Positions 15,399 to 40,914 of a stretch of 45,522 nucleotides of DNA are shown here, piece after piece. Each line of letters starts with the position of its first letter. The stretch's first letter is position 1. Source of the stretch: an uncultured bacterium (GTDB lineage: Bacteria; Joyebacterota; Joyebacteria; Joyebacterales; Joyebacteraceae); assembly GCA_964562405.1 (NCBI GenBank), contig CAZLTC010000003.1:7036-52557 (forward strand), written 5' to 3'. A program made the position numbers and the translations under genes. The notes under the pieces are model-generated. The model searched no databases. It was not told the DNA's origin and saw nothing but the letters and a program-made list of their open reading frames with translations.

Positions 15399-15414
15399 GG
15401 ACTGAGCTTCCTCC

Positions 15415-22704: not shown

Positions 22705-22818
22705 GACGACGCGCGTTCATGCGCGTCGTCGCGCTGCACGCACGCCTACGGGGGACACCAACCGGACTCACCGCGCACATAGCCGAGCGGGGGTGGGATC
22801 TCTCCCACCCCCGCTCGG
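22705..22818. terminator. Two hairpins between convergent transcription units
   Basis: 10-bp stem 22705-22730 and perfect 16-bp stem 22783-22818 (GAGA loop on minus strand); no clear U-tract. Confidence 0.5.
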
Positions 22819-22847: not shown

Positions 22848-23453
22848 CTACCCCAGCCAGTCCTCCGTCAGGTAGACCTCCCGCCTGCAGGCCGGGCACA
22901 TGATCATGTAGGAGTCTTGGCGGCCGATCGGCTTGTCTTCCGGCCGAGCCGTCGGGTCCTGGGTCGCGCCGAAGCGCTGGTGAAGCGCCACCAGGAGCGT
23001 CGGGTTCGCGACCGCAAGCGAGCCGACCTTCCGCGCGATCCACTCCAGGTGTTCGCGGGTCGTGATCACATCGCCGCAGTGCTCGCAGCGAACGAGTTCT
23101 TTCTCGACCGACGTCACCGCCTGAGCCCTATCGAACACCGCCAGCGCAAAATTGTGCGAGAGCTGGATGCCCTTCTTGGTGGTGCACATCGCCTCGCACT
23201 GGCCGCAGTAGATGCAGTTGTCGAAGTGGTGAATGAGCGTCCGGGTGTCCCCCTCGTCGACCACGTCGATCGTCCTCGCCGGACACACCTCCGCGCACGC
23301 ACCGCAGCCTATGCAGTCCTCCTCGCTGTAGAGCGGCTGGCCGCGGAACGCCTCGGCCGGCTCCAGCGGCGTGAAGGGGAACGTGGTAGTGTACGGTCCC
23401 TTCACGACGGCGGTGAGGGCTTCCTTGAGTTCCCGAAGCTTCGGTTTCTTCAT
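22848..23453 (-). CDS. Hydrogenase 4Fe-4S subunit (NuoI/MbhN/HycF-like)
   Basis: FRG, CIGCGACAEVCP, CIYCGQCEAMC plus extra CEHC...CPAC. Confidence 0.88.
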   Translation of the reverse strand: MKKPKLRELKEALTAVVKGPYTTTFPFTPLEPAEAFRGQPLYSEEDCIGCGACAEVCPARTIDVVDEGDTRTLIHHFDNCIYCGQCEAMCTTKKGIQLSHNFALAVFDRAQAVTSVEKELVRCEHCGDVITTREHLEWIARKVGSLAVANPTLLVALHQRFGATQDPTARPEDKPIGRQDSYMIMCPACRREVYLTEDWLG

Positions 23454-23519
23454 CTCGGATAGTCTCCCCGGGGGATCTCACCCGCGAGCCGAAACGCCCG
23501 CGCGGGCCCTTGGGCCCCG

Positions 23520-23855
23520 CTAGTGCCCCACGTCCTCCCTGTACTTGTCGATAACGCTGCCGCGCCAGAGTGGCACGCCGGATAGGTGCGCGCCTCTCGC
23601 AAGTGCGTGGCTTCCCGTCGGCGAGGTCCACAGCACGAAGACCGCCGCCAGGAGCGCCTTGATGCCCATCGCCGACCAGCCACTATGGACGAGCACGCCG
23701 ACCAGGATGAGGCAGGTCCCCAGCGTCACGCACTTCGTCGCGGCCTGCAGCCTGTTGTAGACGTCGGGAAGACGGATGAGGCCGATGGCCCCGACGATAT
23801 CGAAGAACACGCCTATCGATATGAGGATGTACGGTGCGACTCCGCCGTTACTCAT
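23520..23855 (-). CDS. mrpG: Mrp antiporter subunit G (MbhC-like)
   Basis: GLIRLPDVYNRLQAATK, TSPTGSHALARGA. Confidence 0.9.
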   Translation of the reverse strand: MSNGGVAPYILISIGVFFDIVGAIGLIRLPDVYNRLQAATKCVTLGTCLILVGVLVHSGWSAMGIKALLAAVFVLWTSPTGSHALARGAHLSGVPLWRGSVIDKYREDVGH

Positions 23856-24102
23856 CGAATCCCCTCCCCTCCAGGTACTTCGCAAGAGCCAGCGTACCGA
23901 TGAAGGACAGGAGCGCCCATGCGATCGCCACGTTCAGGTAGTAGTCCTTGCCGGTGATGAGCCCGAACACCCCGCAGATCCCAACCACCATCACGCCGAT
24001 AGTGTCGATCGCCACTGCCCTGTCGGGAGCCGTCGGCCCCCTGGCCACCCGAAAGAGGCAGATGAATGTCCCGATGATCAGGAGCATAAGGAACGTCTGC
24101 AT
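23848..24102 (-). CDS. mrpF: Mrp antiporter subunit F (MbhB-like)
   Basis: GPTAPDRAVAID, LLSFIGTLALAKYL. Confidence 0.9.
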   Translation of the reverse strand: MQTFLMLLIIGTFICLFRVARGPTAPDRAVAIDTIGVMVVGICGVFGLITGKDYYLNVAIAWALLSFIGTLALAKYLEGRGFDE

Positions 24103-24605
24103 CAGTCGAAAACCCTCCTCAAGGTGACCTCGAAACGCCCGGCGATGTCCCGGGTCATTGCCTCCGTGTCCTCGAGATTCTCGTGAACGTTGATCCAGTG
24201 CACGTACAGCCAGTCGTCGATGATGTCGACCGTGAGCGTGCCGGGCGTCAGTGTGATCGAGTTCGCCAGGAACGTCTTGGCCTCATCGGTCTTGAGCGTC
24301 GTCTTGATCTTCACGATGCCGGGCCTGATCGGCATGTTCGGGTGGACCACCCGGTAGAGCACGTCGAAGTTAGCAAGGATGATCCAGAACGAAAGCGAGA
24401 TCATGTGCATGAGCGCCCAGAACCACCGCACCGGACTGAAGAGCCTCTCCACACGCCTGGGAAGCAGTCCCGAGAGCAGGAATGCGAACAGGACCGCGAT
24501 GACTGCCCCGACGATGACTCCCTGCACGTCGAGCGACCACGTGAGGAGCATCCACAGGGCGAAGATGATGATGAGATCGAGAAGTCTTCTTTTCAATCGT
24601 TCCAT
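24102..24605 (-). CDS. mrpE: Mrp antiporter subunit E (MbhA-like)
   Basis: PIRPGIV, LANSITLTPGTLTVD, LYVHWI. Confidence 0.92.
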   Translation of the reverse strand: MERLKRRLLDLIIIFALWMLLTWSLDVQGVIVGAVIAVLFAFLLSGLLPRRVERLFSPVRWFWALMHMISLSFWIILANFDVLYRVVHPNMPIRPGIVKIKTTLKTDEAKTFLANSITLTPGTLTVDIIDDWLYVHWINVHENLEDTEAMTRDIAGRFEVTLRRVFD

Positions 24606-24621
24606 CGGACTCTCCACCCCC

Positions 24622-26166
24622 CTAGCCGAGGACCAGCTTCACGTACTCAGCGCTGTTCAGAAGTGCATCCCTGGCCGGGCCGAGCATGCGCTCCCCGACC
24701 GCGGGCTGTGTGACGGCGAGTATTCCCAGGCCGACACAGACGATCGCAAGCAGGATCAGAGGAACGTACATCGCCGCGGGGACCTCGTGGGCCTTCTCGA
24801 CGCTCTTGCCGACGTCCCCGAAGATGATGTGCCTCTGCACCTTCACGTAGTACACCAGAGTCACGAACGCCATCGCGATGGCCACCCCGCCGATCGCGAA
24901 GTGCCCCGACTTGACGACCGCGACGATGATGATCAGCTTGCTCCAGAACCCGCTGAACGGTGGCACGCCGGCTATCGACAGCGCGGCCAGATTGGTCGTG
25001 GCGGCCGTTATCGGCATGCGCTCGCGCAGCCCGCCCAGGAGCTTCAGATCCCTCGTCCCGGTCGCGTACTGTATGGCGCCGGACGAGAGGAAGAGGAGCG
25101 ATTTGAACGACGCGTGGTTGATGAGATGGAAGAGCCCGCCGAAGATCGCCAGCGCCGCCAGTGAGCGTGACCCGCCCATCGCGAGGATCTTGGCTCCGAT
25201 GCCGAGCCCGAGCGTGACATAGCCTATCTGTCCGATCGAGCTGTACGCCAGGAGCCTCTTGAAGTCCCACTGCCCGACCGCCATGAGCCCGCCGAGCACT
25301 ATCGACATCACCGAGAAAGCGATCATCGCGTTGGCGATGATGAGCGAGCCCGGCTGCGTCGGGGCGAACCCGAACACGTTGAAGAACACGCGGCACATGG
25401 CGTAGACGCCGAGGCTCTTGATGACCACGCCCGACAGCATCGCCGATATCGGCGCCGGCGCCGACGGGTGCGCGTCCGGCAGCCACGCGTGGAACGGGAC
25501 GACCGCGGCCTTCAGCGCAAATCCCATCAGGAAGAGCGCGGACGCCAGCAGAAGCGCGGGATTCATCCCCGGTCCCGCCCACTTCGTGCTGATCTCCCTG
25601 GCGACGTCCGCCATGTTCAGCGACCCGGTGACCGCGTAGACGGTCCCGATCGCGAAGAGGATCATCACCGAAGCGACGCTCCCCAGGATCAGATACTTGA
25701 AGCCGGCCTCCAGCTCGTCTGCCTCGACTCCGAACGCGACCAGCGCGTACGAGGCGATCGACGCGACCTCCAGGAAGACGAAGAGGTTGAAGAGGTCGCC
25801 CGATATGACCACGCCGTTCATCCCCGCCACCATGAGCATGAAAAGCCCGTAGTACTTGTCGAGCCCCGTGTACTCCTTCATGTACTTGAGGGAGAAGATG
25901 ATGCACAGGAAGGCGATGACGTTGATGGCCACCAGAAGAAGGATGGAGAGCCCGTCCGCCACGACCGCAATGCCGATCGGCGCCACCCACTTCCCCATGT
26001 AGAGCACCGTCGCCGGCCCGCCTATCGCCATCAGCGCCATCACAGCCAGCACGGCCGTACTCGCGGTAGCCAGGACCTCACCGCTCTTCTTCCACCACAA
26101 TGCGAGCATCGGGATGAGAAACGCGGCCGCGAGCGGGATCGCTACATACAGCGGGATAAGGTTCAT
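24622..26166 (-). CDS. mrpD: Mrp subunit D / MbhH-like antiporter subunit
   Basis: GDLFNLFVFLEV, KAAVVPFHAWLPDAHPSAP, KRLLAYSS, GVPPFSGFWSK. Confidence 0.9.
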   Translation of the reverse strand: MNLIPLYVAIPLAAAFLIPMLALWWKKSGEVLATASTAVLAVMALMAIGGPATVLYMGKWVAPIGIAVVADGLSILLLVAINVIAFLCIIFSLKYMKEYTGLDKYYGLFMLMVAGMNGVVISGDLFNLFVFLEVASIASYALVAFGVEADELEAGFKYLILGSVASVMILFAIGTVYAVTGSLNMADVAREISTKWAGPGMNPALLLASALFLMGFALKAAVVPFHAWLPDAHPSAPAPISAMLSGVVIKSLGVYAMCRVFFNVFGFAPTQPGSLIIANAMIAFSVMSIVLGGLMAVGQWDFKRLLAYSSIGQIGYVTLGLGIGAKILAMGGSRSLAALAIFGGLFHLINHASFKSLLFLSSGAIQYATGTRDLKLLGGLRERMPITAATTNLAALSIAGVPPFSGFWSKLIIIVAVVKSGHFAIGGVAIAMAFVTLVYYVKVQRHIIFGDVGKSVEKAHEVPAAMYVPLILLAIVCVGLGILAVTQPAVGERMLGPARDALLNSAEYVKLVLG

Positions 26167-26169
26167 CGG

Positions 26170-26517
26170 CTATCCCCTCAGCTTGCTGATCTGTGACATG
26201 TCAAAGGTTCCGTGCTTCTCGTAGAGCCTGATGCACATGGACACCATTAGAGCGAGCACCCCCAGCCCGATGACGATGGACGTCAGCACGAGCGCCTGCG
26301 GAAGAGGATCGACGAACCGCGCCAGCATGCTGTCCGTTGTCCCCTTGTCGACGATCGGAGCCACCCCGTTGTGCTTGTACCCGATGATGATGAGGTAGAG
26401 GTTAACGGCGTAATCCATGATCACCACGCCGATGACCTTCTTGACGATGTTCTTCTTCGCCACGAGGCAATACAACCCCATCGTGAGCAGAACCACGCAC
26501 AGAAAGTAGACCGTCAT
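26170..26517 (-). CDS. mrpC: Mrp subunit C (MbhG-like)
   Basis: KNIVKKVIG, DPLPQALVLTSIVIG. Confidence 0.92.
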   Translation of the reverse strand: MTVYFLCVVLLTMGLYCLVAKKNIVKKVIGVVIMDYAVNLYLIIIGYKHNGVAPIVDKGTTDSMLARFVDPLPQALVLTSIVIGLGVLALMVSMCIRLYEKHGTFDMSQISKLRG

Positions 26518-26969
26518 GATAGCTCATCCTCGATCATGGACCTGAAGGAACGCCTGCGGAAGATGGCGAGCGCCGAGAAGACAAGGAAGAGCGACGTGCC
26601 GACCTTGAACGCGATGGCGATATTGATCGGGAGGATCATGCCGGCGCTCATGAGCCGGAACTGCTCTCCCCTCCCGAAGATGTTCATGAAGAAGTACCCG
26701 CCCGTGACACCCAGCCACCCGATGGTAAGGAACGCGAGCGCGCCCGCGGAGTCGAGCACGTGCGCCGTTCTCTCGCCGAGGCGGGAGAATGCGACCTCTT
26801 TGCCCTGAGCGAGCAGAAGGAGGATGAACGCGCAGGCGATGATGACGCCCCCGGCGAAGCCGCCGCCCGGTGTCAGGTGGCCGTACAGAACGATGTACGC
26901 GCCGAAGATGACGATGAAGGCGACGACGAAGTCGGTGATGGTCTTGACTATCAGCGTGAGTCCCTTCAT
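26514..26969 (-). CDS. mrpB: Mrp subunit B (MbhF-like)
   Basis: YGHLTPGGGFAGG motif. Confidence 0.9.
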   Translation of the reverse strand: MKGLTLIVKTITDFVVAFIVIFGAYIVLYGHLTPGGGFAGGVIIACAFILLLLAQGKEVAFSRLGERTAHVLDSAGALAFLTIGWLGVTGGYFFMNIFGRGEQFRLMSAGMILPINIAIAFKVGTSLFLVFSALAIFRRRSFRSMIEDELS

Positions 26970-27523
26970 GCCGTCGCCACCTCCCTCTTCGCTCTCTTCC
27001 CGTCCTTGCGGAGCAGAGCGAGCGCTCCAAGGATGGACCCGAACAGGACCGTCGCCTCCCCGAGCGTGTCGTATGCCCTGTAGTCGAGGATCACCGACGT
27101 CACGATGTTGGCGGCATGCGTCTCCGGGAGACCCCTCATCACGTACACCCTCGACACCCTCATGATCGGCTCTCCGAACTGCGGGAAGCCCTTGCTCCCG
27201 AAGATCATCGCGCCGAACCCCAGGATCAGTCCGAAGAAGATCAGTGAGACGATGACCGCCAGCGTGTCACGGTGCAGGTCGACGGCAGTGTTGTCGAGGA
27301 GAATGGTTCCCCTAATGAGGATGACGAGAACCAGAATCTCCACGACGAGCTGTGTGATCGCAATGTCGGGCGCCCCGAGGAACAGGAACGCAACCGACAG
27401 GGCGAACCCGACGGCGCTCACCGAGATCACGGCCGAAAGGAGGTTCCTGGTCTCAATGGCGACGATGGAGCCGATCACCATGAAGATCAGGAGCATGTAA
27501 AGCTGAGGAGTGATGTTTTCCAT
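26966..27523 (-). CDS. MbhD/MbhE-like fused subunit (MrpA C-terminal equivalent)
   Basis: LGAPDIAITQ and NIVTSVILDYRAYDTLGE motifs. Confidence 0.85.
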   Translation of the reverse strand: MENITPQLYMLLIFMVIGSIVAIETRNLLSAVISVSAVGFALSVAFLFLGAPDIAITQLVVEILVLVILIRGTILLDNTAVDLHRDTLAVIVSLIFFGLILGFGAMIFGSKGFPQFGEPIMRVSRVYVMRGLPETHAANIVTSVILDYRAYDTLGEATVLFGSILGALALLRKDGKRAKREVATA

Positions 27524-27582
27524 CTAGCGTCTCCCGCCTCTCGCCCATCCATGGAAGTACCACGTCAAAGAAACGTCTTCTG

Positions 27583-29478
27583 CTACTGCGCGTTCACAAG
27601 CTGCCTTAAGAGCGTGCTCAGAAGAGCGAACACGATGGCGCCCAGTCCGATCACGGCCCACGACAGATAAGTGGACAGGACGCCGTTGTGCAGCATCTTG
27701 AGGCCGTTGACGATGCCGCCTCCGAGCCTTCCTCCCAGCACGTAGACGTCGAACACTCGCTGCTCCGCGTTCGCGAAGAGCCCCGCCAGCCCCTTGGTCT
27801 CGCGAATCGTGTTGTAGAAGCCTGTTCCCGCCACGTGCATCGAGTCCATGCTCGCGGGGGGCCTCGTCCCTCCGATGAAGACGTGGCCGGTGCGCATCTT
27901 GGTCATCCTGCCGACCAGGAAGACCAGGAACCCGAAGACGAGACCCAGGAGGATCAGCGTCGTTGCGGTGCCCGGGCTCCAGAAGCCGATCGCGCCCAGG
28001 TCGAGCCCGCCGGTCGCGCTTACGCCGATGGCGCCGTGCACGATGGGGTTGATGAACCTGTCGATCGGGAACTTGGCCCAGACGCCGAACCCGATGCAGA
28101 GGATGGCCAGCACGATCATCGGGACCTGCATGGCCCACGGCGCCTCGTGCACGCGGCTGAACCTGCTCGGCTTCTGACCCAGGAAGGCCGAGTAGAGGAC
28201 CTTCACGAACGAGGCCAGTGTCAGCGCACTTCCGAAGAGCGCCGCGATCAGGAAGATCCAGTACGACGACACGCCCCGCGAACCGAGTTCGACGAGGCCC
28301 GAGTAGACCATCCACTTGGATACGAACCCGTTGAACGGCGGCACGCCGGAGATCGACACCGCAAAGATCGCGGTCGCGATGAATGTCACGGGCATGGCCC
28401 GAGCGAGGCCGCCCAGCTCCTTGAGTTCGGTCGTCCCGGTCTCCTTCTCGATCGAGCCGGCCGAGAGGAAGAGTCCGGCCTTGTAGATGGCGTTGTTCAG
28501 CATGTGGAAGAGACCGCCCGCGATGCCTATCGGGATGCCCGTCCCAATGCCAAGGATCATGTACCCGACCTGGCTCACCGCGTGGTATGAGAGCAGCACC
28601 TTGAGGTCGTGCTGGATGAGCGCCATCAGGACGGCGCCGACGATGGTCACGGCGCCTATGATCATGAGCAGCATCATCATGCCGAAGCCGACGCTGAAGA
28701 TATCGAGGCTGATGCGGGCCAGCAGATAAATGCCCAGAAGCTTGTCGATGGCGGCGGGCAGGAGCGCCATGACCGGCGTCGGCGCGCCCTTCGCCGCGGC
28801 GGGGATCCACGTGTGGAACGGCATGGCCCCGGCCTTGGTGATGGCGCCGATCATCATGAGAATGTAGATGGTGGTCGTCATGCCGTCGCCGACGAAGATG
28901 GAGAGCTTGTCCATCGAGACGGTGCCGTAGCGGGCCCAGATCATGGCTACGGCAATGAAGAGCGCCGCGTCCGAGAGCCCAAGCATGATGAAGCTCTTCG
29001 CCGCCCCCTCCGCCGCCTGCATCTTCTTCAGGCCGATGTTCACGTACACGAAGAGGATGGCCGTCAGCGCTTCCCAGAAGATAAGGAGCACGAGAAGGCT
29101 GTTCGACAGGGCCGCCCCGACGCTCGCCGCCACGGTCCACAGCAGGAACGCGTAGTAGCGCCTGCCGTCGTACTCACGCGTGAGCCACGAGATCGAGTAG
29201 AGGCCGACCCCTAACCCGAACAGCGCGATGAACAGGATGATGAACGCGCTGAACTGGGTCAGTAGAAGGTCGAACTGGATCGAAAGCCCTCCCAGAGCCA
29301 CCAGGTCCTTCACGTACGAAATCGGCCAGTGCCCGAAGAGCCGGAGCGCGGCCACGAACGTCCAGACGAGGGCGATCAGGCTCAACGTCTCCCGGACGCC
29401 CTTCACTCTTCTCGGAACGAGAAGACAGAGGCCGCCCGCCAGGGCCGGGACGACGATCGGTACGAGCAACTGTGGCAT
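27583..29478 (-). CDS. Second antiporter-like subunit (NuoL/MrpA/HyfB-type)
   Basis: Start MPQLLVPIVVP; IFWEAL, KAGAMPFHTWIP, LSYHAVSQVGY, GVPPFNGFVSKW. Confidence 0.88.
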   Translation of the reverse strand: MPQLLVPIVVPALAGGLCLLVPRRVKGVRETLSLIALVWTFVAALRLFGHWPISYVKDLVALGGLSIQFDLLLTQFSAFIILFIALFGLGVGLYSISWLTREYDGRRYYAFLLWTVAASVGAALSNSLLVLLIFWEALTAILFVYVNIGLKKMQAAEGAAKSFIMLGLSDAALFIAVAMIWARYGTVSMDKLSIFVGDGMTTTIYILMMIGAITKAGAMPFHTWIPAAAKGAPTPVMALLPAAIDKLLGIYLLARISLDIFSVGFGMMMLLMIIGAVTIVGAVLMALIQHDLKVLLSYHAVSQVGYMILGIGTGIPIGIAGGLFHMLNNAIYKAGLFLSAGSIEKETGTTELKELGGLARAMPVTFIATAIFAVSISGVPPFNGFVSKWMVYSGLVELGSRGVSSYWIFLIAALFGSALTLASFVKVLYSAFLGQKPSRFSRVHEAPWAMQVPMIVLAILCIGFGVWAKFPIDRFINPIVHGAIGVSATGGLDLGAIGFWSPGTATTLILLGLVFGFLVFLVGRMTKMRTGHVFIGGTRPPASMDSMHVAGTGFYNTIRETKGLAGLFANAEQRVFDVYVLGGRLGGGIVNGLKMLHNGVLSTYLSWAVIGLGAIVFALLSTLLRQLVNAQ

Positions 29479-29495
29479 CTCTCTACCCCCGGAGA

Positions 29496-30668
29496 CTAGG
29501 AGTTCCTCTTGAGCTCTTCGGTCTTGGCGTGCGAGAGCGCGATCAGGTCCTTGCCGGACATCGCCGGCCGCCCGTCGGGCCCGAGCACCGCCATGCGCTC
29601 CGTGCAGCTGTAGCACGGGTCGATGATGGCGAATATGAGGACGGCATCCGAGATCGACTCGCCCTTCACACGCGGCCTGAACGACGGGATGTTGCAGAAC
29701 GTCGGCGCCCTCATCTTGTGGCGCTCCGGCATGTTCGTCCCGTTGGACCTGATGAAGTGGAACGTCTCGCCGCGAGGCGCTTCGATGTGGCCGATGCCCT
29801 CGCCCCGCGGTATCTCGCGTACCTCGTTGGCGATGGGCCCGGACGGGAGCTTGTTGATGCACTGCTTGATGATCTTGACCGACTCGAGCATCTCGAGAAG
29901 GCGAACCGCGGCCACCGCCAGGCAGTCGCCGGCGGGCTGCACGATGACGTTCCAGTCGACCTCGGAGTAGGCGCCGTACGGCTCGTCTCGCCTGACGTCG
30001 ATGTCCACTCCGGAACCCCTCGCAGTCGGGCCCAGGGTGCCGTACGCGATGGCGTCCTCCTTCGTGAGGATGCCCACGCCCTTCAAGCGGCCGAGGATGA
30101 CCGGGTCGTCGAGGATGGCGTGTAACAGCATCTCGGTCTGCGCGGCGAACTCGTCCATGGCCTTCAGGACGCCCGGCCAGACATCGTCGGGCACGTCGCG
30201 CCTGACGCCGCCAGGGCGGTACCACGCGTAGTTGTTTCTGTTGCCTGTTATGGCCTCGAGCGCGTCCAGAACGGGCTCGCGGTACTTCCAGCCCCACATG
30301 AATACGGTCCAGTACCCGAGGATGTGCCCGCCGAGACCGACCCAGAGCATGTGGCTGTGAAGTCTCTCCAGCTCGTGCACGATTGTGCGCAGGTAGCGCG
30401 CGCGGTCGGTCGGGCCTACGCCGGCGATGTCCTCCATCGCCCTGCAGGCCGCCCAGGCGTGCGAGGCCGAGCAGATGCCACAGATCCTCTCGACGAGGAA
30501 CGTGTCCTGGTCGTAGGTCTTCTCCTGCGCGAGCAGCTCGATGCCCCTGTGGATGCGCCCGAGGTCGATGTCGGCGTCCTCTACCGTCTCACCGTCCACG
30601 TAGAGCGAAATGTACTCCGGTTCCTCAAGGACGGGATGGAACGGGCCGATCGGTATGAGCGTGCTCAT
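29496..30668 (-). CDS. Group 4 [NiFe]-hydrogenase large subunit
   Basis: GPFHP; L1 ERICGICSASH; EAPRGE; L2 DPCYSCTER followed by a 32-aa C-terminal extension. Confidence 0.93.
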   Translation of the reverse strand: MSTLIPIGPFHPVLEEPEYISLYVDGETVEDADIDLGRIHRGIELLAQEKTYDQDTFLVERICGICSASHAWAACRAMEDIAGVGPTDRARYLRTIVHELERLHSHMLWVGLGGHILGYWTVFMWGWKYREPVLDALEAITGNRNNYAWYRPGGVRRDVPDDVWPGVLKAMDEFAAQTEMLLHAILDDPVILGRLKGVGILTKEDAIAYGTLGPTARGSGVDIDVRRDEPYGAYSEVDWNVIVQPAGDCLAVAAVRLLEMLESVKIIKQCINKLPSGPIANEVREIPRGEGIGHIEAPRGETFHFIRSNGTNMPERHKMRAPTFCNIPSFRPRVKGESISDAVLIFAIIDPCYSCTERMAVLGPDGRPAMSGKDLIALSHAKTEELKRNS

Positions 30669-31097
30669 CTACTCGTCCCTCCTCATCGCGTGGAAGTCGG
30701 CGGGGCGATCGTGCGAGGAGAGTATCTTCCGGGGGTCCGGGTGTCCGGTGAACTCTACCCCCAGGAAGTCGTAGATCTCTCGCTCGATGAAATCCGCTGC
30801 TGGATAGTACTTTGCCAGGGAGTCGATCTTCGGGAACGGCTTGTCCAGCGTCGTCCTTATGTTCACGACCGTTCCGTCCCTGTCGATGGCGAAGTGATAC
30901 AGAAGCTCCACACCCGTGCTCCTGTCGCTGCCCGTCGCGGTCGCCAACCTCCCGTGCGCCACCTCGTACATGTGCCTCGTCACGGGGATCCAGTCGTCGT
31001 TCGAAACGGTGACGAACGCGCGGCGCTCGTTCCGCTCGAAGATGTCGACACGGTCCCCGAACTTGGCCTTGAGTCCCTCAAGAACTTGCTTGCTCAT
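30669..31097 (-). CDS. NuoC/MbhK-like hydrogenase subunit
   Basis: ELLYHF, EREIYDFLGVEFTGHPDPR. Confidence 0.9.
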   Translation of the reverse strand: MSKQVLEGLKAKFGDRVDIFERNERRAFVTVSNDDWIPVTRHMYEVAHGRLATATGSDRSTGVELLYHFAIDRDGTVVNIRTTLDKPFPKIDSLAKYYPAADFIEREIYDFLGVEFTGHPDPRKILSSHDRPADFHAMRRDE

Positions 31098-31150
31098 TGT
31101 CTCGTCACTCCCCTGGCCGTAACCGTGCGGTCAGCGCGGCAGGCTCGCCC

Positions 31151-31564
31151 CTAGAGCTTCCCAATGAGTTTGACGATGCCATCTATGATCGCCTCGGGCC
31201 TCGGGGGACAACCTGGAACGTATGCGTCCACGGGGATGTGCTTGTCGACAGGCCCCGCGAAGTTGTAGCCGTCTTTGAAGATGCCGCCGGTGCAGCCGCA
31301 CGCGCCCAGGGCGACGACCGCCACGGGCTTCGGCGCCTGCTCGTAGGCCTCGATGAGCTGCGGCACGACCTTGCGAGGAACACTTCCCGACACGAGGAGA
31401 ACGTCGGCGTGCTTGACGCTCCCAACGAGCTTGATGCCGAAGCGCTCCACGTCGTACTTCGGGCACAGGCAGTCAAGGACTTCTATGTCGCAGTTGTTGC
31501 AGGCTCCGGCGTTCAGGTGGAAGACCCACAGCGACTTCTTGAATCCCCATTTGGTAGCACCCAT
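31151..31564 (-). CDS. Group 4 hydrogenase small subunit (NuoB/MbhJ-like)
   Basis: CNNCDIE, YDVERFG, GAC, PGCPPRPE. Confidence 0.93.
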   Translation of the reverse strand: MGATKWGFKKSLWVFHLNAGACNNCDIEVLDCLCPKYDVERFGIKLVGSVKHADVLLVSGSVPRKVVPQLIEAYEQAPKPVAVVALGACGCTGGIFKDGYNFAGPVDKHIPVDAYVPGCPPRPEAIIDGIVKLIGKL

Positions 31565-31585
31565 TCGTTCACCGCTCCGTTCGAT

Positions 31586-32524
31586 CTAGAACCCCGCTAT
31601 CGCGAAAACCATGCCGATGATGGCGAGGACGGTGACAGGTCCCCAGAAGAAACGCACGGCCTGGTCGATCCTCACCCTGGGATTCGTGTTCTTTATGAGT
31701 ACCGCGACGGTCACGATGATCACGTACTTGACGATCGTGTAGAGCAGACCCCACCCGGTCAGCTGCAGGCCGCCCCAGAAGATGGTGATGAAGAGAATGG
31801 GCAGCGTGAAGAGCATCATCGCCTGGGTGACCTTCACGACGGCCAGCGCCGGGCCCGAGTACTCCATGTGCGTCCCGTCCATCAGCTCGGTCTCCGCCTC
31901 CGGAATGTCGAAGGGCGGGTAGGTAAGCTTGGCCTGCATGCAGAGCAGGCAAACGATGAACGCGATGATGCAGGACGGGTTGCCGAGCAGGACGCCGTGA
32001 GCATCCTGGTAGTTGATGATGGCGTCCAGCCTGAGCGTCATCGGCGAGATCTTCGTGACGGCCGTGAAGATGGCGATCACAAAGGGTAGCTCGTAGGCCA
32101 GCACCAGCTTCATCTCCCGGCTCGCGCCCACGCTCGATAGCGGATTGGACGAGGCGGACGCGCCGATGATCATCCCGAGAGACGGGATGGTGAGCAGATA
32201 GATGACCGCGATCAGGTCGCCCACGAACCCGACATCCTTCATGTTCGTGAGCCACAGCAGCATCGACACGACACCGACCGCCGCGAGACCGGCCAGAGGG
32301 GCCAGCAGGAACCCGGTCCTCTTCGCGCCCTCGGGGATCACGATCTCCTTCCCCATTAGCTTGAGGATGTCCGCGAAGGGCTGATACCACGGTGGTCCGA
32401 CCCTCCACTGCACACGCGCGCTGACCTTCCTGTCCACCCACGTGGTCAGAAGGCCGACCGCGGCCGTGAACAAGAGGCCTGGGAAGATCAGGAAGTAGAA
32501 AACCATGCTCAGTGTCGAAGCCAT
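31586..32524 (-). CDS. NuoH/MbhM/HycD-like membrane anchor
   Basis: DRKVSARVQWRVGPPWYQPFADILKL, PFDIPEAETEL, PRVRIDQ. Confidence 0.92.
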   Translation of the reverse strand: MASTLSMVFYFLIFPGLLFTAAVGLLTTWVDRKVSARVQWRVGPPWYQPFADILKLMGKEIVIPEGAKRTGFLLAPLAGLAAVGVVSMLLWLTNMKDVGFVGDLIAVIYLLTIPSLGMIIGASASSNPLSSVGASREMKLVLAYELPFVIAIFTAVTKISPMTLRLDAIINYQDAHGVLLGNPSCIIAFIVCLLCMQAKLTYPPFDIPEAETELMDGTHMEYSGPALAVVKVTQAMMLFTLPILFITIFWGGLQLTGWGLLYTIVKYVIIVTVAVLIKNTNPRVRIDQAVRFFWGPVTVLAIIGMVFAIAGF

Positions 32525-32572
32525 CCTGTTACCTCTCCGTTGGTCCTAGCGAAGCATCCGGAACCGAGAGCC

Positions 32573-33055
32573 CTAGCGCTGACGCCGCACCGTCTTCTCC
32601 ACGGAACGACCGCCCCTCATCGGTCTGCCTTTCTGAGCCTCGATGTCGCTTATGTCCTCGAAGGTCCTCGCCCCCGACACGCACGTCCCGGCGCACATCG
32701 AGTCCTTACCGTCGAGCGTCCGCCAGCTGCAGAGGTCGCACTTGGGCATCGTGTGGCGTGTCTTGATGAGGTCGATGGCCCCGAACGGGCACGCCTGCGC
32801 GCACGACGTGCAGCCGCTGCACTTGATATTGCTGCGGATCACGAGCCCGTCGTCCCGCCGCTTGATGGCCTCCTGCGGGCACGCGGCCTCGCAGAGGGGC
32901 TGCTCGCAGTGCCTGCAGTTCATCTGCAGCACCGTGTTAACCAGAACCTGCGAGGCCTCGAGATGATCCTGGTCGTTGTGAGAATAGAAGCACGCCGCGA
33001 TACAGCTCCTGCAGCTGATGCAGCGTCCGTAGTCCAGGACATTCCTCTTGTTCAT
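32573..33055 (-). CDS. Multi-4Fe-4S electron transfer protein (HydN/HycB/FdhB-like)
   Basis: CISCRSCIAAC, CRHCEQPLCEAACP, CSGCTSCAQACPFG, KCDLC...CAGTC. Confidence 0.88.
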   Translation of the reverse strand: MNKRNVLDYGRCISCRSCIAACFYSHNDQDHLEASQVLVNTVLQMNCRHCEQPLCEAACPQEAIKRRDDGLVIRSNIKCSGCTSCAQACPFGAIDLIKTRHTMPKCDLCSWRTLDGKDSMCAGTCVSGARTFEDISDIEAQKGRPMRGGRSVEKTVRRQR

Positions 33056-33109
33056 CCAGATCTCCCGGTATGAGCGGCGCGGGCGGTCAAGACCCCACGC
33101 CCACACCTT

Positions 33110-34792
33110 CTACGCCTCGGCCGTCACCTTCGCCCTGGAGGCGGAAACGTCGAACCACCTCGTGCTCGGATTGGCCGTCCACTTCAGAAGACCCCTGGCG
33201 TCGGGCACGTAGCTCGGAATCGCTACAAGGCCGCCGGGCATCCTGCTCGTGACTATCGCGATGATGCGTGTCTCGCCACGGTCGGTCGAGAGTGACACCG
33301 TGGACCCCTGTTCAACCTCGAGGTCGCCTGCGGCGCCCTCGCCGATCCAGATCTCGCAGTACGGCGAGATCGACTGGGCGAAGCTCATGCGTCCCGTTAT
33401 GGTGCCGTCCCATCTGTGGAGCGGGCTTATGCCCTCGACGAGACAGAGCTCGCCGTCCTTCGACGAGGCGGGACGACTCAGCGCGCCGGCGACGTCGACC
33501 TGGAGCGGCGGGTGCTCCGCTACCGCAACCTTGCCCAACGTCGCGCCTAGCTCTTTCGCGATCGCCGCGAGCATCTCGCGGACCGGGGCCGCGTCGCCCT
33601 GGGGCGCCGTGACCGGCGACACCGAGGTTGCAATCCCGAAGGACGCCGAATAGCTCCCCTCGATCTCGGTCCACACCGCCTGTGGCAATCCCACGTCACT
33701 GTGCTTCGTCACGTCGTTCTCGAACACCGACGACGCGACGAGAAGCTCGAGCCCCTCGACATCGTCTGCGCCGAGCGCGCCGGGATACAGCTGAAGGATA
33801 TCGGGGCCGAGAACAAGCAGCCCCTTTATGGTTCCATCGGACACACCCTTGAGGATCTCAGGCACCGTCCGTGCCGAGCCGACGCGCTCGAACGCGCCTA
33901 TCGCGTTGCCCCCTCGGAAGAGCGGCGCGTACTTGCCGCCAACGGCCTTCGCGAGATCGGACGCGAGCTTACCAATGAGATATCCGGACGTCGAGTCTCC
34001 GAGTCTGGAGGAGGCCATGACCACGACCTTCCCCTGCTCCTTGATATGCTTGGCAAGCGACACAAACTCGCGCTCAGACATGCCCGCGGCTTCCGCCGCT
34101 TTCGCCGCCGATACGTCCGGGGCACCCTGCGTGTTCATCGCGCGGAGCAATCCGCCCAGCACCACGGGCTCGGCGCCCGGGGCGGGCGTCATCTGCCTGT
34201 CGGCGAACCAGTCGGTGTTGCTGCGATACGGGTTGATCGTGAAGATGCGGTTCGAGCGTGTGCGGTGGCGCGCCTCGATGACGCGCTTGGCGATGCACGG
34301 GTGGCCCCAGAAGACGTCGCCTATCAGGATGAAGCACTCACCGGCGTCCACATCCTCGGGGGTCGCGTCGCCCGCCCCGCCTCCCATGAGGAGGGGAAAG
34401 TCGTTGCCGTCGTAGGCGACGGCTATGTTGCTGGTCCCGAGCGAAGCTGCGAACGACGCGGCCGCCTCGTAATCCTCGTTGGAAAGCTCGGTCCCGACGA
34501 TCACGCCCAGCGCTTCGCCGCCCTTGCTCTCCTTTATCTCGACAAGCTTGCCCGCGGCCTTGGTCACACCGCTCGCCCACGGAACCCTTCGCCTGTTGAC
34601 CGTCGCCGCGAGGAACCTCTTGGGGTGCGTCAGCAGCTCGTGGTTGTAGTGTCCGCGGACGCACAGCGCGCCCCGGTTCTGACGCGCCTCGGGATCGAAA
34701 TCGACCCGGACAGGTACGCCCGCGTCCACCTCCATCGCGAACCCGCACTGGAGGGAACAGAAGAGACACGACGCCTTCTTGATCTCTGGCAT
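33110..34792 (-). CDS. Molybdopterin-oxidoreductase-fold protein (FdhA/NuoG-like), probably non-catalytic
   Basis: N-terminal CLFCSLQC...LCVRG 4Fe-4S motif, SNED, WTEIEGSY, C-terminal molydop-binding-like domain; no Cys/Sec-His at the FDH active-site position. Confidence 0.75.
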   Translation of the reverse strand: MPEIKKASCLFCSLQCGFAMEVDAGVPVRVDFDPEARQNRGALCVRGHYNHELLTHPKRFLAATVNRRRVPWASGVTKAAGKLVEIKESKGGEALGVIVGTELSNEDYEAAASFAASLGTSNIAVAYDGNDFPLLMGGGAGDATPEDVDAGECFILIGDVFWGHPCIAKRVIEARHRTRSNRIFTINPYRSNTDWFADRQMTPAPGAEPVVLGGLLRAMNTQGAPDVSAAKAAEAAGMSEREFVSLAKHIKEQGKVVVMASSRLGDSTSGYLIGKLASDLAKAVGGKYAPLFRGGNAIGAFERVGSARTVPEILKGVSDGTIKGLLVLGPDILQLYPGALGADDVEGLELLVASSVFENDVTKHSDVGLPQAVWTEIEGSYSASFGIATSVSPVTAPQGDAAPVREMLAAIAKELGATLGKVAVAEHPPLQVDVAGALSRPASSKDGELCLVEGISPLHRWDGTITGRMSFAQSISPYCEIWIGEGAAGDLEVEQGSTVSLSTDRGETRIIAIVTSRMPGGLVAIPSYVPDARGLLKWTANPSTRWFDVSASRAKVTAEA

Positions 34793-34820
34793 GTCGGTTA
34801 ACCTCTCAAGCGAGAAGCCC

Positions 34821-35666
34821 CTAGAACGGATCTTCGAACTTCGCCACCTGCGCCGCGGTCATGACGGGGCCGTCCTTGCAGATGTAGTGCTCGCCCATCA
34901 TGCAGTGCCCGCACTTGCCGAGCCCGCAGCTCATGTTCCGCTCCATCGAGTGATAGATGTTCTCGGGCTTGAAGCCTTTCTGGAGAAGCACCATGTTCAC
35001 GAACTTGAGCATGATCGGAGGCCCGCATACACACGCCACGGCGCTCGGGGCGTGGAACGGAAGCTCCTCGACGTCGACCGTCGTTATCATGGGCAGGCCG
35101 TCCAGCAGCACGGTCACGACGCCGACCGTGCCTTTCCACTCGGGATGCGGCTCGTCTATAGTAAGGAGGACCTCGGTGTTCTTCTTCTTCTCCCACTCGG
35201 GGAGCAGGTCCTTGTAGACGATGTCCTCCGGTGTCCTGGAGCCGTAGCGTATCGAGATCTTCTTGAACTTGTCGATCTCGTCGAAGAGCGCGAGGATGAG
35301 CGAACGCAGCGGCGCCAGGCCGACGCCGCCTCCCACGATGAGGATCTCCTTGCCGTAGAAGTCCTGCATATTGTAGCCGTTGCCGTACGGGCCGCGGATC
35401 CCGACCGTGTCCCCCACCTTCATCTTCTCGAGCGCCTGCGTCACTGCCCCCACGCGCATGATGGTGATCTCGAGGGTGTCCTTCACGTTGGGGTTGGATG
35501 ACGGCGTGAACGGCGCCTCGCCGACTCCCGGCACGGTCAGCTCGACGAACTGGCCGGCCTCGAACGTGACCGGCTCCTTGGGACGGAACCGATACGTCGT
35601 GATGTTCGGCGTCTCGGGCTTGATATCCTCGATCACGCTCTCGATTGGCCTGTACAGATTCTTCAT
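34821..35666 (-). CDS. FAD/NAD(P)-binding 2Fe-2S oxidoreductase (AsrB/HydG/FlxA-like)
   Basis: GQFV...GEAP, RGPYGNG, GGGVGLAPLRS, CGPPIM, ERNMSCGLGKCGHC...CKDGPV; ATGA overlap. Confidence 0.9.
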   Translation of the reverse strand: MKNLYRPIESVIEDIKPETPNITTYRFRPKEPVTFEAGQFVELTVPGVGEAPFTPSSNPNVKDTLEITIMRVGAVTQALEKMKVGDTVGIRGPYGNGYNMQDFYGKEILIVGGGVGLAPLRSLILALFDEIDKFKKISIRYGSRTPEDIVYKDLLPEWEKKKNTEVLLTIDEPHPEWKGTVGVVTVLLDGLPMITTVDVEELPFHAPSAVACVCGPPIMLKFVNMVLLQKGFKPENIYHSMERNMSCGLGKCGHCMMGEHYICKDGPVMTAAQVAKFEDPF

Positions 35667-36730
35667 GCCTTCGCCTTCTCCGTGAGGACGTGCTTGATGG
35701 CCTCTCTCATGTCGATCCTGCCCATGCACACGTCGATGCATCTGCCGCACCCGGTGCACGTAACGAGGCCGTATCTGTCTCGCGTGTACTCGAACTTGCA
35801 GCGAAGTCTGTTGCGCAGTCTCTCGGCGAGCGCGGGCCTGGAGTTCCCGCCGCCTCCGGTTCGCGCGAAGCCGATGGACAGGCAGGTGTCCCAGTTGCGC
35901 GTGCGCTCGTATCCGCCCGTGGCGCGCTGGTCTACCAGCAGGAAGCACGTGCAGGTCGGGCAGCATCGATTGCAGGCCGAGCAGGCCACGCAGTTCTGGG
36001 TCACCTCCATCCAGGACTCGAGCGTCCCTTCGAGGTCGTACTTGTCGTACTGCTCGTCGACCGCGAACTCGGCGTTGTGGCGGTTGATCGCCTCGGCCAC
36101 CGAATTGCGATTGCGATTGCGCTCGTCGAGATGCTCGGGACGGACCTCCATGAGCAGGTCGTCGTTCCCGGCCAGAAGCTTTTCGCCCTTCTCGGAACCG
36201 ACCGTCACGATGAAGCCCGACTCGATCGGGGCGAGATTCAGGTCGAACCCGTCCTTGGGATAAGGCTCGCCGCCGACGCGCGTGCAGAAGCAGGTCTCCT
36301 TGGCCGCGGTGCAGTCGAGCGACACGATGAACGCATTCTCACGCTTCTCGATGTAGAACGGGTCGTCGTACTCCTCGGTGAAGTACTTCGTGCTCCAGTA
36401 GACCTTGTCGAACTTCTGGAGTCCTCTGACGTCGCAGGCCCTCGGCCCAACGATGACCGTCGACGGCGCATCCACGTGCGCCTCAGCTTCACTCGACGGG
36501 TACTTCGCGACGACCTCGCGTGGGTAGAAGAGGAACGACTTGGGAGGATGAGCGGGCGCCGCGCCCTGGAGGTGCACGTTCTCTGGAACCACGTCGCCGA
36601 CGAGCTCGTAGTCGGGCGTCTCCTCGTGGTTCATGATGTCGAACGTCACCGGGACGTAGACGCGATGGTCCTTGGCCCACCTCCCGATCAGCTTCAAGAG
36701 GTTCTCTCTTCCGATGAAGACTTCTCTCAT
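35663..36730 (-). CDS. 4Fe-4S subunit (AsrA/HydB-like)
   Basis: RACD, DPFY, CFC, CVACSACNRCCPTCTCF, RNWDTC, CTGCGRCIDVC. Confidence 0.9.
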   Translation of the reverse strand: MREVFIGRENLLKLIGRWAKDHRVYVPVTFDIMNHEETPDYELVGDVVPENVHLQGAAPAHPPKSFLFYPREVVAKYPSSEAEAHVDAPSTVIVGPRACDVRGLQKFDKVYWSTKYFTEEYDDPFYIEKRENAFIVSLDCTAAKETCFCTRVGGEPYPKDGFDLNLAPIESGFIVTVGSEKGEKLLAGNDDLLMEVRPEHLDERNRNRNSVAEAINRHNAEFAVDEQYDKYDLEGTLESWMEVTQNCVACSACNRCCPTCTCFLLVDQRATGGYERTRNWDTCLSIGFARTGGGGNSRPALAERLRNRLRCKFEYTRDRYGLVTCTGCGRCIDVCMGRIDMREAIKHVLTEKAKA

Positions 36731-36895
36731 CGTGCCATGCCCTCTCAGTTTGGAGTGACGCGACAGTCGCTTCCGGGCCCGGTGCTCACGTAGGAGCGGC
36801 GCGCGACCCTCATCCGTCCCCGGCCATGCAGAGACCCCGCGCCGCTCCCGTATCGGGAACGGGCCCGGGGTCAGATCATATGCCGCGCGCGGGCA

Positions 36896-36950
36896 GAAAA
36901 AGGCGTGACGCCCAAGCCTGCAAGTAACACTCAGCCCTTCCACTGATTGC
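36896..36950 (-). ncRNA. Candidate Na+-I (DUF1646-like) riboswitch with intrinsic terminator
   Basis: RNA AUCAGUGGAAGGGCUGAGUGUUACUUGCAGGCUUGGGCGUCACGCCUUUUUC: P1 UCAGU/GCUGA with purine loop, CAGG..UUGGG element, GGGCG/CGCCU hairpin plus U-run; located 5' of an Mrp operon. Family match is from recollection of the consensus, not computed. Confidence 0.6.
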
Positions 36951-37019
36951 TGCTCGCGGGTCGAACGAAGCCCCAACCTCTGCGAAGATAGTACCGGGTC
37001 GGGGATTATGGTCACAGGG

Positions 37020-37049
37020 AGTTTATCGTCGGAAGCTCATATGCGTCAA
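37020..37049 (-). promoter_or_regulatory. Sigma70-type promoter of the hydrogenase/Mrp operon
   Basis: TTGACG-N18-TAAACT; implies a ~280-nt leader. Confidence 0.55.
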
Positions 37050-37080: not shown

Positions 37081-38025
37081 CTACTCCTTGGGAGAGAGGA
37101 ATCTGAGGTCGAGCGCGCCGTCGCCGGCCTTCTTGTCGAACACGTACTTGCGCACGCGCGCGAGGACCTTCTCCATGGTCTCCAGATACATGCGCTCCCG
37201 AACTGCCGACGGGGTCTTCCGGTATTCGGTGCTTATCGCGCGGAAGCGCTGCGCTTCGCCCTCCGCCCTCGAGATCTTCTCTGAACGGTAGCCGGTCGCT
37301 GATGCGAGAAGACCCGCCGCATCGCCCCTTGCGGTGGGAACGACGCGGTTCTGGTATCCCTCCGCCTCCTGGATGATCCTGTTCCGGTCCTCGCGGGCGC
37401 TCGCGACCTCTCTGAACGCGTCGGCGACCTCGCGCGGAGGGTTGGTCTCCTGCAGGTGCGCGGCCACGATCTCGATGCCCGCGCCGTACTCGTCCAGCAC
37501 CACCTGCGCTCGCTCCTTAACGGCGGTGGCTATCTCGACCCTCGCGGTCGTGAGGATATCATCGACCGGCATGCGGCTGATCTTCTCGGTGAGCACGGAC
37601 TCGCCGACACGCCTCACCAGCCAGTGCGGCTCCTCACAGGCGAACAGAAAGTTCTCGGGGGACTTGACGACGTACTGTATCAGAAGCTGTATCTCTATGA
37701 TGTTCTCATCGCCCGTGACGAACTGGGCCTCGCGCGGCTCGGGTGTCAGTCCGCGAAGCTGGTCTATGATCTTGTAGCCCACGCTCATGCGCTTGATCGA
37801 GGTCACCTGCGGCGTATCAACGACATCGACCGGCCAGGGGATCCTGTAGTGGATCCCGGGCGCTACCGACGATCGGACCACGCGACCGAATCGGCGTACG
37901 ACCCCTCGCTCATCCGACTGGACTACGTAGATGCCGGAGAGGAGATACAGACCGACTGCCGCGAGAAGGGTCAGCCGCGCCATCCGCCTCACGCGCGAGA
38001 ACCCGGCCGACATGTCGGAGCGCAT
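37081..38025 (-). CDS. hflK: HflK (SPFH) FtsH modulator
   Basis: GVVRRFGR, PGIHYRIPWP, TGDENI, PPREVADAFREVASARED, ARGDA, RMYLETME; start uncertain. Confidence 0.88.
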   Translation of the reverse strand: MRSDMSAGFSRVRRMARLTLLAAVGLYLLSGIYVVQSDERGVVRRFGRVVRSSVAPGIHYRIPWPVDVVDTPQVTSIKRMSVGYKIIDQLRGLTPEPREAQFVTGDENIIEIQLLIQYVVKSPENFLFACEEPHWLVRRVGESVLTEKISRMPVDDILTTARVEIATAVKERAQVVLDEYGAGIEIVAAHLQETNPPREVADAFREVASAREDRNRIIQEAEGYQNRVVPTARGDAAGLLASATGYRSEKISRAEGEAQRFRAISTEYRKTPSAVRERMYLETMEKVLARVRKYVFDKKAGDGALDLRFLSPKE

Positions 38026-38137
38026 GGTCACCACGGTCGCTCCGCCATCGCCACCCGCGACGCGCTCGAGGCCTTCGCCCGCGCTCCCCCGCGCGTCTCC
38101 CGGCCCGCCGTCTCTCTGGCCCGGACCCTCCATTCGA

Positions 38138-39019: not shown

Positions 39020-39104
39020 TGTCTCGCTCCGTGTGGTTCGGTCGGACCTCGTCACGAGTCGGACGGTCCAGACCGTGCGCCGGCCAGGCCCGGCGGCCCG
39101 GCGG

Positions 39105-40823: not shown

Positions 40824-40914
40824 GCGCACCCTCACTCACTACCTGCCCGACGCCCCGGACGAAGCCCTTGTGGCACTCTGGTCCGCGGCAGTCCGACTCC
40901 CGAGGGTAGTCCTG

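Follow-up and report, generated by a model that had tools for sequence, protein, structure and literature searches.

A 16-gene operon was named hunA-P by Glass et al. (2021; 10.1101/536078), who placed its large subunit, HunG, in HydDB group 4g of the [NiFe]-hydrogenases with the metal-site signature CGIC/CYCC, and who reported in some metagenome-assembled genomes a 4Fe-4S molybdopterin-domain protein between HunB and HunC; according to these authors, cultured Kosmotoga carry hun as well. The same type of operon was called the "Mbh-Mrp-oxidoreductase type" by Meheust et al. (10.1101/765248), and Matheus Carnevali et al. (2019; PMC6349859, Supplementary Note 5) described an "enigmatic" group 4 hydrogenase in Saganbacteria RX5A. 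The operon design has been described three times, from genomes alone. In passages of the Candidatus Effluviviacota paper (PMC11323493), group 4 hydrogenases and the mrp genes are treated in a general way only, and a literature search for later work on Hun returned the naming preprint (10.1101/536078) only. Here we analyzed an operon of this type in a stretch of 45,522 nucleotides (the window) from an uncultured sediment bacterium of the Joyebacterota (contig CAZLTC010000003.1). A preliminary description of this DNA had presented the operon as a complex I-like hybrid; this hybrid is not new, as the design was already in print (PMC6349859, 10.1101/765248, 10.1101/536078), and on its sequence features the operon is to be regarded as a lineage-specific variant of the known Hun enzyme type.

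The operon consists of 17 minus-strand genes at positions 22848 to 36730, each identified by Pfam and NCBIfam searches, and the gene list, order, strand and coordinates given in the preliminary description proved exact. The hun letters used here were assigned from the gene order and from the groupings of Glass et al. (EFGP for the hydrogenase, I-O for the Mrp-like genes). The intergenic distances range from -8 to 66 nucleotides, with six overlaps, a gap of 350 nucleotides precedes the first gene, and the downstream neighbour is convergent. Because the window has a high content of guanine and cytosine (about 0.61-0.68 in 2-kb windows), lists of open reading frames are rich in artefacts; two such frames, at 23450-23683 and 27524-29140, overlap real genes, have no Pfam match and were rejected. 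The source genome is a draft of 2.65 Mb in 139 contigs, 94.65% complete. It was compared with a lineage sample of 31 genomes of the phylum, all from one family, 20 of which are at least 90% complete; relatives carry the public labels Candidatus Eisenbacteria or Candidatus Effluviviaceae.

The hydrogenase core is encoded by hunD, a NuoH/MbhM-like membrane anchor (31586-32524; Pfam NADHdh, 7.7e-66), hunE, a NuoB-like small subunit (31151-31564; Oxidored_q6, 8.3e-31; NCBIfam NF005012, 137 bits for a cut-off of 116), hunF, a NuoC-like subunit (30669-31097; Complex1_30kDa, 1.1e-22), and hunG, the NuoD-like large subunit of 390 amino acids (29496-30668; NiFeSe_Hases and Complex1_49kDa). The last gene, hunP (22848-23453), encodes a NuoI/HycF-like ferredoxin with two clusters and a cysteine-bearing C-terminal extension (Pfam Fer4; NCBIfam formate hydrogenlyase Fe-S subunit, 1.7e-30). 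HunG carries the N-terminal signature RxCGxCxxxH as RICGICSASH and the C-terminal signature DPCxxCxxR as DPCYSCTER, together with NuoB-, NuoH-, NuoC- and NuoI-like partners. These two motifs provide the four Ni-Fe cysteines, which bears out the earlier view that the metal site is intact. The best matches of HunG in the Protein Data Bank (PDB) are the large subunit of Mbh (6cfw_L, 1.4e-76, 261 bits) and HycE (7z0s_E, 1.2e-69, 238 bits); the F420- and methyl viologen (MV)-type hydrogenases match no better than 1e-16. The class 4d/4g expected in the preliminary description accords with the 4g call that Glass et al. published for HunG (10.1101/536078). HunG extends beyond DPCYSCTER at its C-terminus, and a HycI-type hydrogenase maturation protease encoded 20 kb from the operon (2248-2817, minus strand) fits HunG because of this extension.

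The second metal-site motif sets the lineage apart. It reads CYSC in the window and in all 15 readable lineage loci (17 loci, of which 2 are cut short), versus CYCC in 80 of 80 other relatives. Both outer cysteines of the CxxC are kept in CYSC, and the third cysteine of the Hun signature is replaced by serine. Since the CYCC signature is lacking, we filed the operon as a variant and not as a plain member of Hun. The HunG proteins of the lineage form a clade of their own, 54-61% identical to other hun relatives; beyond the lineage, the closest relatives share 58-62% identity and bear the labels Margulisbacteria, WOR-1, Omnitrophica, Planctomycetota and Latescibacterota.

The genes between hunG and hunP encode the membrane module. 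HunH (27583-29478, start at 29478; 631 amino acids) resembles NuoL and the N-terminal part of MrpA (Proton_antipo_M, 6.2e-54), and HunI (26966-27523) joins MbhD and MbhE, resembling the C-terminal part of MrpA. They are followed by hunJ (MrpB-like, 26514-26969; MnhB, 7.8e-24), hunK (MrpC/NuoK-like, 26170-26517; Oxidored_q2, 3.9e-25), hunL, a second antiporter-like subunit of the MrpD type with 514 amino acids (24622-26166; Proton_antipo_M, 2.7e-62), hunM (MrpE-like, 24102-24617; MNHE, 4.1e-37), hunN (MrpF-like, 23848-24102; MrpF_PhaF, 5.1e-20) and hunO (MrpG-like, 23520-23855; PhaG_MnhG_YufB, 3e-27; NCBIfam TIGR01300 above its cut-off).

At the head of the operon, hunA (35663-36730) encodes an Fe-S protein of 355 amino acids similar to AsrA and to the beta subunit of sulfhydrogenase (NCBIfam ShyB, 2.2e-50; HydB, 1.9e-47). 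It is followed, with an overlap of 4 nucleotides between the hunA stop and the hunB start, by hunB (34821-35666), which encodes a flavoprotein of 281 amino acids similar to AsrB and to the sulfhydrogenase gamma subunit, with domains for flavin adenine dinucleotide (FAD), for nicotinamide adenine dinucleotide or its phosphate (NAD(P)) and for a 2Fe-2S cluster (Pfam FAD_binding_6, NAD_binding_1, DHODB_Fe-S_bind). The best NCBIfam names of the two proteins are the beta and gamma subunits of NAD(P)-dependent or NADPH-dependent hydrogenase/sulfhydrogenase, all with scores below the equivalog cut-offs. Clade profiles of HunA and HunB matched the beta and gamma subunits of sulfhydrogenase 1 over nearly their full length (PDB 9nez_B, 1.1e-71, and 9nez_C, 4.9e-67). 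Furthermore, the flavin motif FTPxS, the nicotinamide motif GGGxGxAP, a CGP motif and the four cysteines of the 2Fe-2S cluster are invariant in 36 AsrB-like sequences, and HunA has 15 invariant cysteines. The pair therefore has every element of the group 3b sulfhydrogenase diaphorase, namely a beta Fe-S subunit and a gamma subunit with FAD, an NAD(P) site and a 2Fe-2S cluster. On this homology and on the conserved cofactor motifs, NAD(P)H is the best reading of the electron partner of HunAB. The neighbouring hunC (32573-33055) encodes a HydN/HycB/CooF-like ferredoxin whose 16 cysteines, invariant or nearly so, form four 4Fe-4S motifs (Pfam Fer4_11; NCBIfam). A complex prediction for the AsrA-like and HydN-like proteins gave a score of 0.00 in a run made without controls, and is evidence neither for nor against a contact. 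An anaerobic sulfite reductase, AsrABC, was considered and discarded: Pfam and NCBIfam found no sulfite-reductase domain in any of the 17 operon genes, and the NCBIfam equivalog scores remained below the cut-offs (118 bits for 323 with AsrA, 222 for 289 with AsrB).

The linkage of this pair to the hydrogenase was followed in two surveys. Using the MopB-like protein encoded between hunB and hunC as query, with one genome per species, we retrieved 25 loci, all from this lineage; every gene found sits in the order and strand of the window, and the missing genes coincide with contig ends. A metagenome scan with an alignment of large-subunit relatives returned at least 592 relatives, and the survey used the 80 best of them. 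Among the 43 of these loci with at least 3.5 kb upstream, the HydN-like and AsrB-like genes are present in 43 and the AsrA-like gene in 40, the other three being cut by contig ends; the 30 loci in which the upstream stretch is 6.5 kb or longer carry the three genes without exception. The full Mrp set lies downstream in 27 of the 29 loci with at least 8.5 kb. Since the AsrA/AsrB-like pair is present in the assessable loci of both surveys, it is a co-inherited part of the hydrogenase across phyla. The synteny survey that the preliminary description had proposed as a check on its "built-in" flavin module thus came out in its favour, and the module was confirmed as to linkage and as to full-length homology with the beta and gamma subunits of sulfhydrogenase 1. 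In two metagenome loci, a second, distant group-4-like set (NuoH, NuoB, NuoD and NuoI, 31-42% identical) lies directly upstream of the hun operon (L068:437-4400 and L083:651-4000).

The seventeenth gene, between hunB and hunC (33110-34792; Pfam, NCBIfam), encodes a MopB-like (FdhA-like) protein of 560 amino acids. It is found in 28 of the 31 lineage genomes, and its 88 clusters within the lineage form a tight family, at least 57% identical, with full-length members of about 560 amino acids; the next matches beyond this family are ordinary formate or nitrate reductases with 21-26% identity. The best sequence match is the formate dehydrogenase FdhF (7qv7_S, 3.8e-37). The predicted fold is that of MopB, of moderate model confidence (predicted local distance difference test score 68.9), with FdhH as the best match (1fdi, 5.3e-23) and NuoG chains further down (8e9g_G at rank 13). 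The N-terminal 4Fe-4S cluster still has its four cysteines. Where true formate dehydrogenases have a pair of cysteine or selenocysteine (Sec) and histidine, the aligned residues of the MopB-like proteins are [N/E/D/Q]-D; within the lineage the catalytic Cys position is variable (N/S/G/A/C) and the next residue is always Asp. Compared with FdhH and FdhF, the protein is shorter by about 120-150 amino acids, the deletions lying between the matched stretches, and many short MopB proteins of 450-620 amino acids, similar to this one, turned up in a profile search across the library. Homologous inserts of 356-611 amino acids with the same Cys/Sec-His substitution occur in other hun loci; only 5 of the 43 assessable relatives have such an insert, and 38 have no such gene.

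Genes for the synthesis of the molybdenum cofactor were searched in the same genomes. MoaC, MoaA-C and, above its cut-off, MoeA_N were each found in only one of the 31 draft genomes, the same one each time, and none of them was found in the source genome (94.65% complete). In the single positive genome, MoaC, MoeA and MoaA lie together on one contig (G003:C22:230587-233750), which could reflect either a recent gain of these genes or an error of binning. The evidence that the lineage cannot make the cofactor is strong, if not absolute for draft genomes. Because the Cys/Sec-His pair is replaced, the inserts elsewhere are short and rare, and the cofactor genes occur in one genome of 31, we read the MopB-like subunit as a probable cofactor-less relic of a formate dehydrogenase, which would serve as an Fe-S scaffold like the C-terminal domain of NuoG. 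The label "FdhA/NuoG-like" of the preliminary description holds for the MopB/FdhA family; the subunit is not a formate dehydrogenase, and its gene is missing from most relatives (38 of 43). Another contig of the source genome (C22, 21000-32000) encodes a NuoF-like protein followed by a 1235-residue fusion of 2Fe-2S, GltD-like, Nqo3-ferredoxin and MopB domains; the MopB domain is the second one in this genome, which has no genes for the cofactor.

The distribution of the insert was compared with a quick tree of 98 large-subunit sequences, rooted at midpoint, in which the root is unsure and the outgroup rows are long branches. The assessable loci without the insert fall in one clade of 72 rows, many of which are contigs too short to be assessed for it, with a Shimodaira-Hasegawa-like approximate likelihood ratio test (SH-aLRT) value of 94. 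An insert-bearing locus (L062) is sister to this clade (SH-aLRT 86), and two further insert-bearing clades, the Eisenbacteria-labelled one (SH-aLRT 99) and that of loci L030-L034, branch alongside from an unresolved base. This topology tentatively fits a single loss of an ancestral MopB-like insert.

What the sequences show directly is which subunits are encoded, that their cofactor motifs are present and that the genes are linked. From this we infer an electron path from NAD(P)H to the Ni-Fe site and its coupling to ion movement. The reading that we favour, and hold to be probable though by a modest measure, is that of a Hun-type single membrane complex with an NAD(P)H input, an ion-coupled hydrogenase and a cofactor-free MopB-like relic. 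It would be built from a group 4 [NiFe]-hydrogenase core (homologues of NuoB, C, D, H and I), a complete split Mrp module with two antiporter-like pumps (MrpA-like and MrpD-like) and a peripheral electron wire. HunB would exchange hydride with NAD(P)H at its FAD and pass single electrons to its 2Fe-2S cluster, from where they would travel through the clusters of HunA, the four clusters of HunC, the two of HunP and that of HunE to the Ni-Fe site. The MopB-like subunit, which keeps one 4Fe-4S cluster, would be a scaffold or a side wire, comparable to the NuoG C-terminal domain of complex I. The redox step would be coupled to the movement of H+ or Na+ through the Mrp module, so that either an ion gradient is spent to vent NAD(P)H as H2 or a gradient is gained from H2-driven reduction of NAD(P)+. 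The standard potentials are about -320 mV for NAD+/NADH and about -414 mV for H+/H2. Since the formation of H2 from NAD(P)H is uphill at these potentials, the complex should run near equilibrium and reversibly.

Several points weigh against this reading. The paper that named Hun proposes ferredoxin as the donor (10.1101/536078), and ferredoxin is also what metabolic reconstructions take for group 4g. Thermodynamics disfavours the formation of H2 from NAD(P)H, and an elaborate ion-pumping module would be better suited to an exergonic donor, for instance ferredoxin. Electrons from ferredoxin could also enter directly at the HydN-like polyferredoxin. The absence of molybdenum-cofactor genes rests on draft genomes, and the conserved Asp that replaces the catalytic His might still bind a ligand. 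The first of these points lead to a ferredoxin-coupled Hun as published, in which HunABC would take reduced ferredoxin, H2 would be released with pumping of H+ or Na+ as in Mbh, and HunB would be a relay only. This was proposed by Glass et al. (10.1101/536078) and underlies reconstructions for Mrp-linked enzymes of group 4g; an ion pump would run on it without thermodynamic difficulty, the solved large subunit closest to HunG belongs to the ferredoxin-dependent Mbh, and the presence of Rnf in the genome indicates that ferredoxin pools matter to the organism. However, Mbh works without a module of the HunAB type, and HunA and HunB match the NAD(P)H-dependent diaphorase pair of sulfhydrogenase over their full length. 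All NAD(P)- and FAD-binding motifs of HunB are invariant in the 36 sequences, and a relay-only HunB leaves the purifying selection on its nicotinamide site unexplained. We therefore consider a ferredoxin-only enzyme rather unlikely.

A combination of both donors would be a three-way junction, with ferredoxin entering at the polyferredoxin and NAD(P)H at HunB, which would either couple ferredoxin:NAD(P)+ oxidoreduction to ion movement, with H2 as a valve, or use the two donors together for H2. Such an arrangement, which we judge improbable, is favoured by the universal presence of both a polyferredoxin and a nicotinamide flavoprotein and by the weakness of NAD(P)H as sole donor for H2. However, the FAD of the PyrK/AsrB type is not known to be a bifurcating flavin, the equivalent small-subunit FAD of Nfn being the non-bifurcating one, and no evidence obtained here separates the junction from the two simpler readings. 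It seems very improbable indeed that the complex is of the formate hydrogenlyase type, with the MopB-like protein as a working molybdo- or tungsto-enzyme on formate or another small substrate and HunAB as an auxiliary outlet to NAD(P)+. The lack of the catalytic Cys/Sec-His pair with a variable Cys position, the shortening by about 120-150 residues relative to FdhH and FdhF (down to 356 amino acids in related inserts), the 38 of 43 assessable relatives without the gene, and the single genome of 31 with MoaC, MoaA-C and MoeA_N all speak against it, even though formate dehydrogenases (FdhF 7qv7_S, FdhH 1fdi) are the best matches in sequence and fold. The order of Fdh-like, HycB-like, hydrogenase and Mrp genes also resembles the Mrp-linked formate-respiring clusters of Thermococcales.

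If the pair does handle NAD(P)H, published models that treat the Mrp-linked group 4g enzymes as ferredoxin-driven H2 producers would be wrong for many sediment and subsurface phyla, and an ion-coupled NAD(P)H/H2 enzyme would be a new answer to the question of how fermenters dispose of NADH as H2. The NAD(P)H claim is testable because cultured Kosmotoga carry hun (10.1101/536078). The cofactor-less Fdh shell would be a living parallel to NuoG and would open a proposed step of complex I evolution to direct study. We tentatively put forward, as a possibility that is itself doubtful, that Hun has repeated the origin of complex I along another path: an ancestor similar to formate hydrogenlyase would have lost the molybdenum cofactor, kept the Fdh shell as an Fe-S scaffold and recruited a pair of the PyrK/AsrB type, giving a reversible ion-gradient-coupled NAD(P)H:H+ oxidoreductase. 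Of the shell, this lineage would have kept the whole, Saganbacteria-like relatives a reduced form and most others nothing, and fermenters could vent NAD(P)H as H2, paying in ion-motive force.

The DNA upstream of the operon contains a promoter-like site, TTGACG-18-TAAACT, found by a consensus scan at 37020-37049 (minus strand). The lineage alignments show conservation of the two hexamers, and TTGAC is the same in each of 13 loci and recurs in six further ones. Between this site and hunA, alignments and a consensus fold delineate a putative 5′ leader (36823-36963, minus strand), in which a sequence-conserved hairpin is followed by a variable stretch, a long terminator-like hairpin and a U-rich tract. 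The leader is kept in all 19 lineage loci with upstream DNA. In the long hairpin, 10 of 15 pairs are changed on both sides and 95.1% of cells are paired; none of 500 shuffles reached this value, and slid controls gave 36-45%. A covariance model of the leader found one match per genome in 30 of the 31 lineage genomes and none in 38 hun loci from other phyla. A comparison with Rfam gave no match, the only hit being a chance microRNA with an E value of 0.62. These features make the leader a candidate attenuator or riboswitch. At the other end, a 16-bp GC-rich hairpin without a U-tract follows the last stop codon (22783-22818, minus strand; minimum free energy -49.3 kcal/mol, z -4.29, with none of 200 shuffles as stable) and likely marks the end of the transcript. 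The tight gaps, the six overlaps, the conserved promoter-like site, the convergent neighbour and the terminal hairpin are consistent with one transcription unit. The consensus operator of Rex had no match in the window at up to three mismatches, and the Rex DNA-binding domain was not found in the source genome (94.65% complete).

Three genes that lie further upstream in the same orientation (37081-40835, minus strand), one for a cation-efflux/Band 7 fusion and two for SPFH/Band 7 proteins, keep their place in the lineage loci that reach so far, and a functional link to the membrane complex is possible. Elsewhere in the window, two adjoining genes (12096-18486, minus strand) encode giant proteins of 1100 and 1023 amino acids with many TPR repeats and a C-terminal CHAT protease domain. 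In the source genome we found Rnf, a fragment of a haem-copper oxidase, a second set of antiporter-like and NuoH-like genes (contig C1) and, for maturation, HypD and two HycI-type proteases. Contig C20 (11000-26000) carries a second [NiFe]-hydrogenase with a large subunit of 490 and a small subunit of 321 amino acids and its own protease; it adjoins a hybrid sensor kinase and a 774-residue NfnAB-like protein that joins a PyrK-type Fe-S domain to a GltD-like NAD(P) oxidoreductase. This genome context leaves the direction of the Hun reaction unfixed.

Compared with known systems, the operon is closest to Hun. It has the same 16 gene functions in the same order, with AsrAB at the head, then the polyferredoxin, the core and the full Mrp set, and it shares the first metal-site motif, CGIC (10.1101/536078). 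It differs by CYSC in place of CYCC, by the MopB-like subunit, which is fixed in this lineage (28 of 31 genomes), and by the lineage-specific 5′ leader; as to the donor, Glass et al. propose ferredoxin whereas NAD(P)H is favoured here. Mbh of Pyrococcus furiosus (6CFW) has the same core and the MbhD/E, MrpB, C, D, E, F and G-like membrane subunits, but it takes free ferredoxin and lacks AsrAB-like, HydN-like and MopB-like subunits. Mbh has one antiporter-like pump and a different gene order, whereas the window operon encodes two such pumps according to Pfam.

The formate hydrogenlyase of E. coli (7Z0S/7Z0T) provides the second-best solved match to HunG, HycE, and lends its name to the NuoI-like Fe-S subunit; its arrangement of a MopB protein, a four-cluster ferredoxin and a hydrogenase is also found here, as in the formate-respiring, Mrp-linked clusters of Thermococcales, and the MopB-like subunit has its best fold match in FdhH. 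By contrast, the MopB-like protein of the window has no Cys/Sec-His pair, the lineage lacks the cofactor synthesis genes, and a flavoprotein pair of the NAD(P)H type is added. Assignment to formate hydrogenlyase or to the Mrp-linked formate-respiring hydrogenases (4a/4b) was rejected, given the replaced Cys/Sec-His motif of the molybdenum or tungsten bis-pyranopterin guanine dinucleotide (Mo/W-bisPGD) site and the lacking cofactor genes. With sulfhydrogenase 1 of P. furiosus (group 3b; 9NEZ/9NF0) the operon shares full-length homologues of HunA and HunB with their cofactor motifs, but the partner here is a membrane-bound group 4 enzyme instead of the soluble alpha/delta subunits, with a polyferredoxin in between; the group 4-like large subunit excludes a group 3b holoenzyme. 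Finally, the membrane and Q-module homologues and the cofactor-less MopB domain beside a nicotinamide-oxidising input module recall complex I. The input module is, however, of the PyrK/AsrB type with FAD and not NuoEF with flavin mononucleotide. A respiratory complex I was discarded, as the operon encodes no Complex1_51K domain and the Ni-Fe cysteines are present; because HunG, the homologue of NuoD, keeps the Ni-Fe ligands, the acceptor would be H+ and not quinone.

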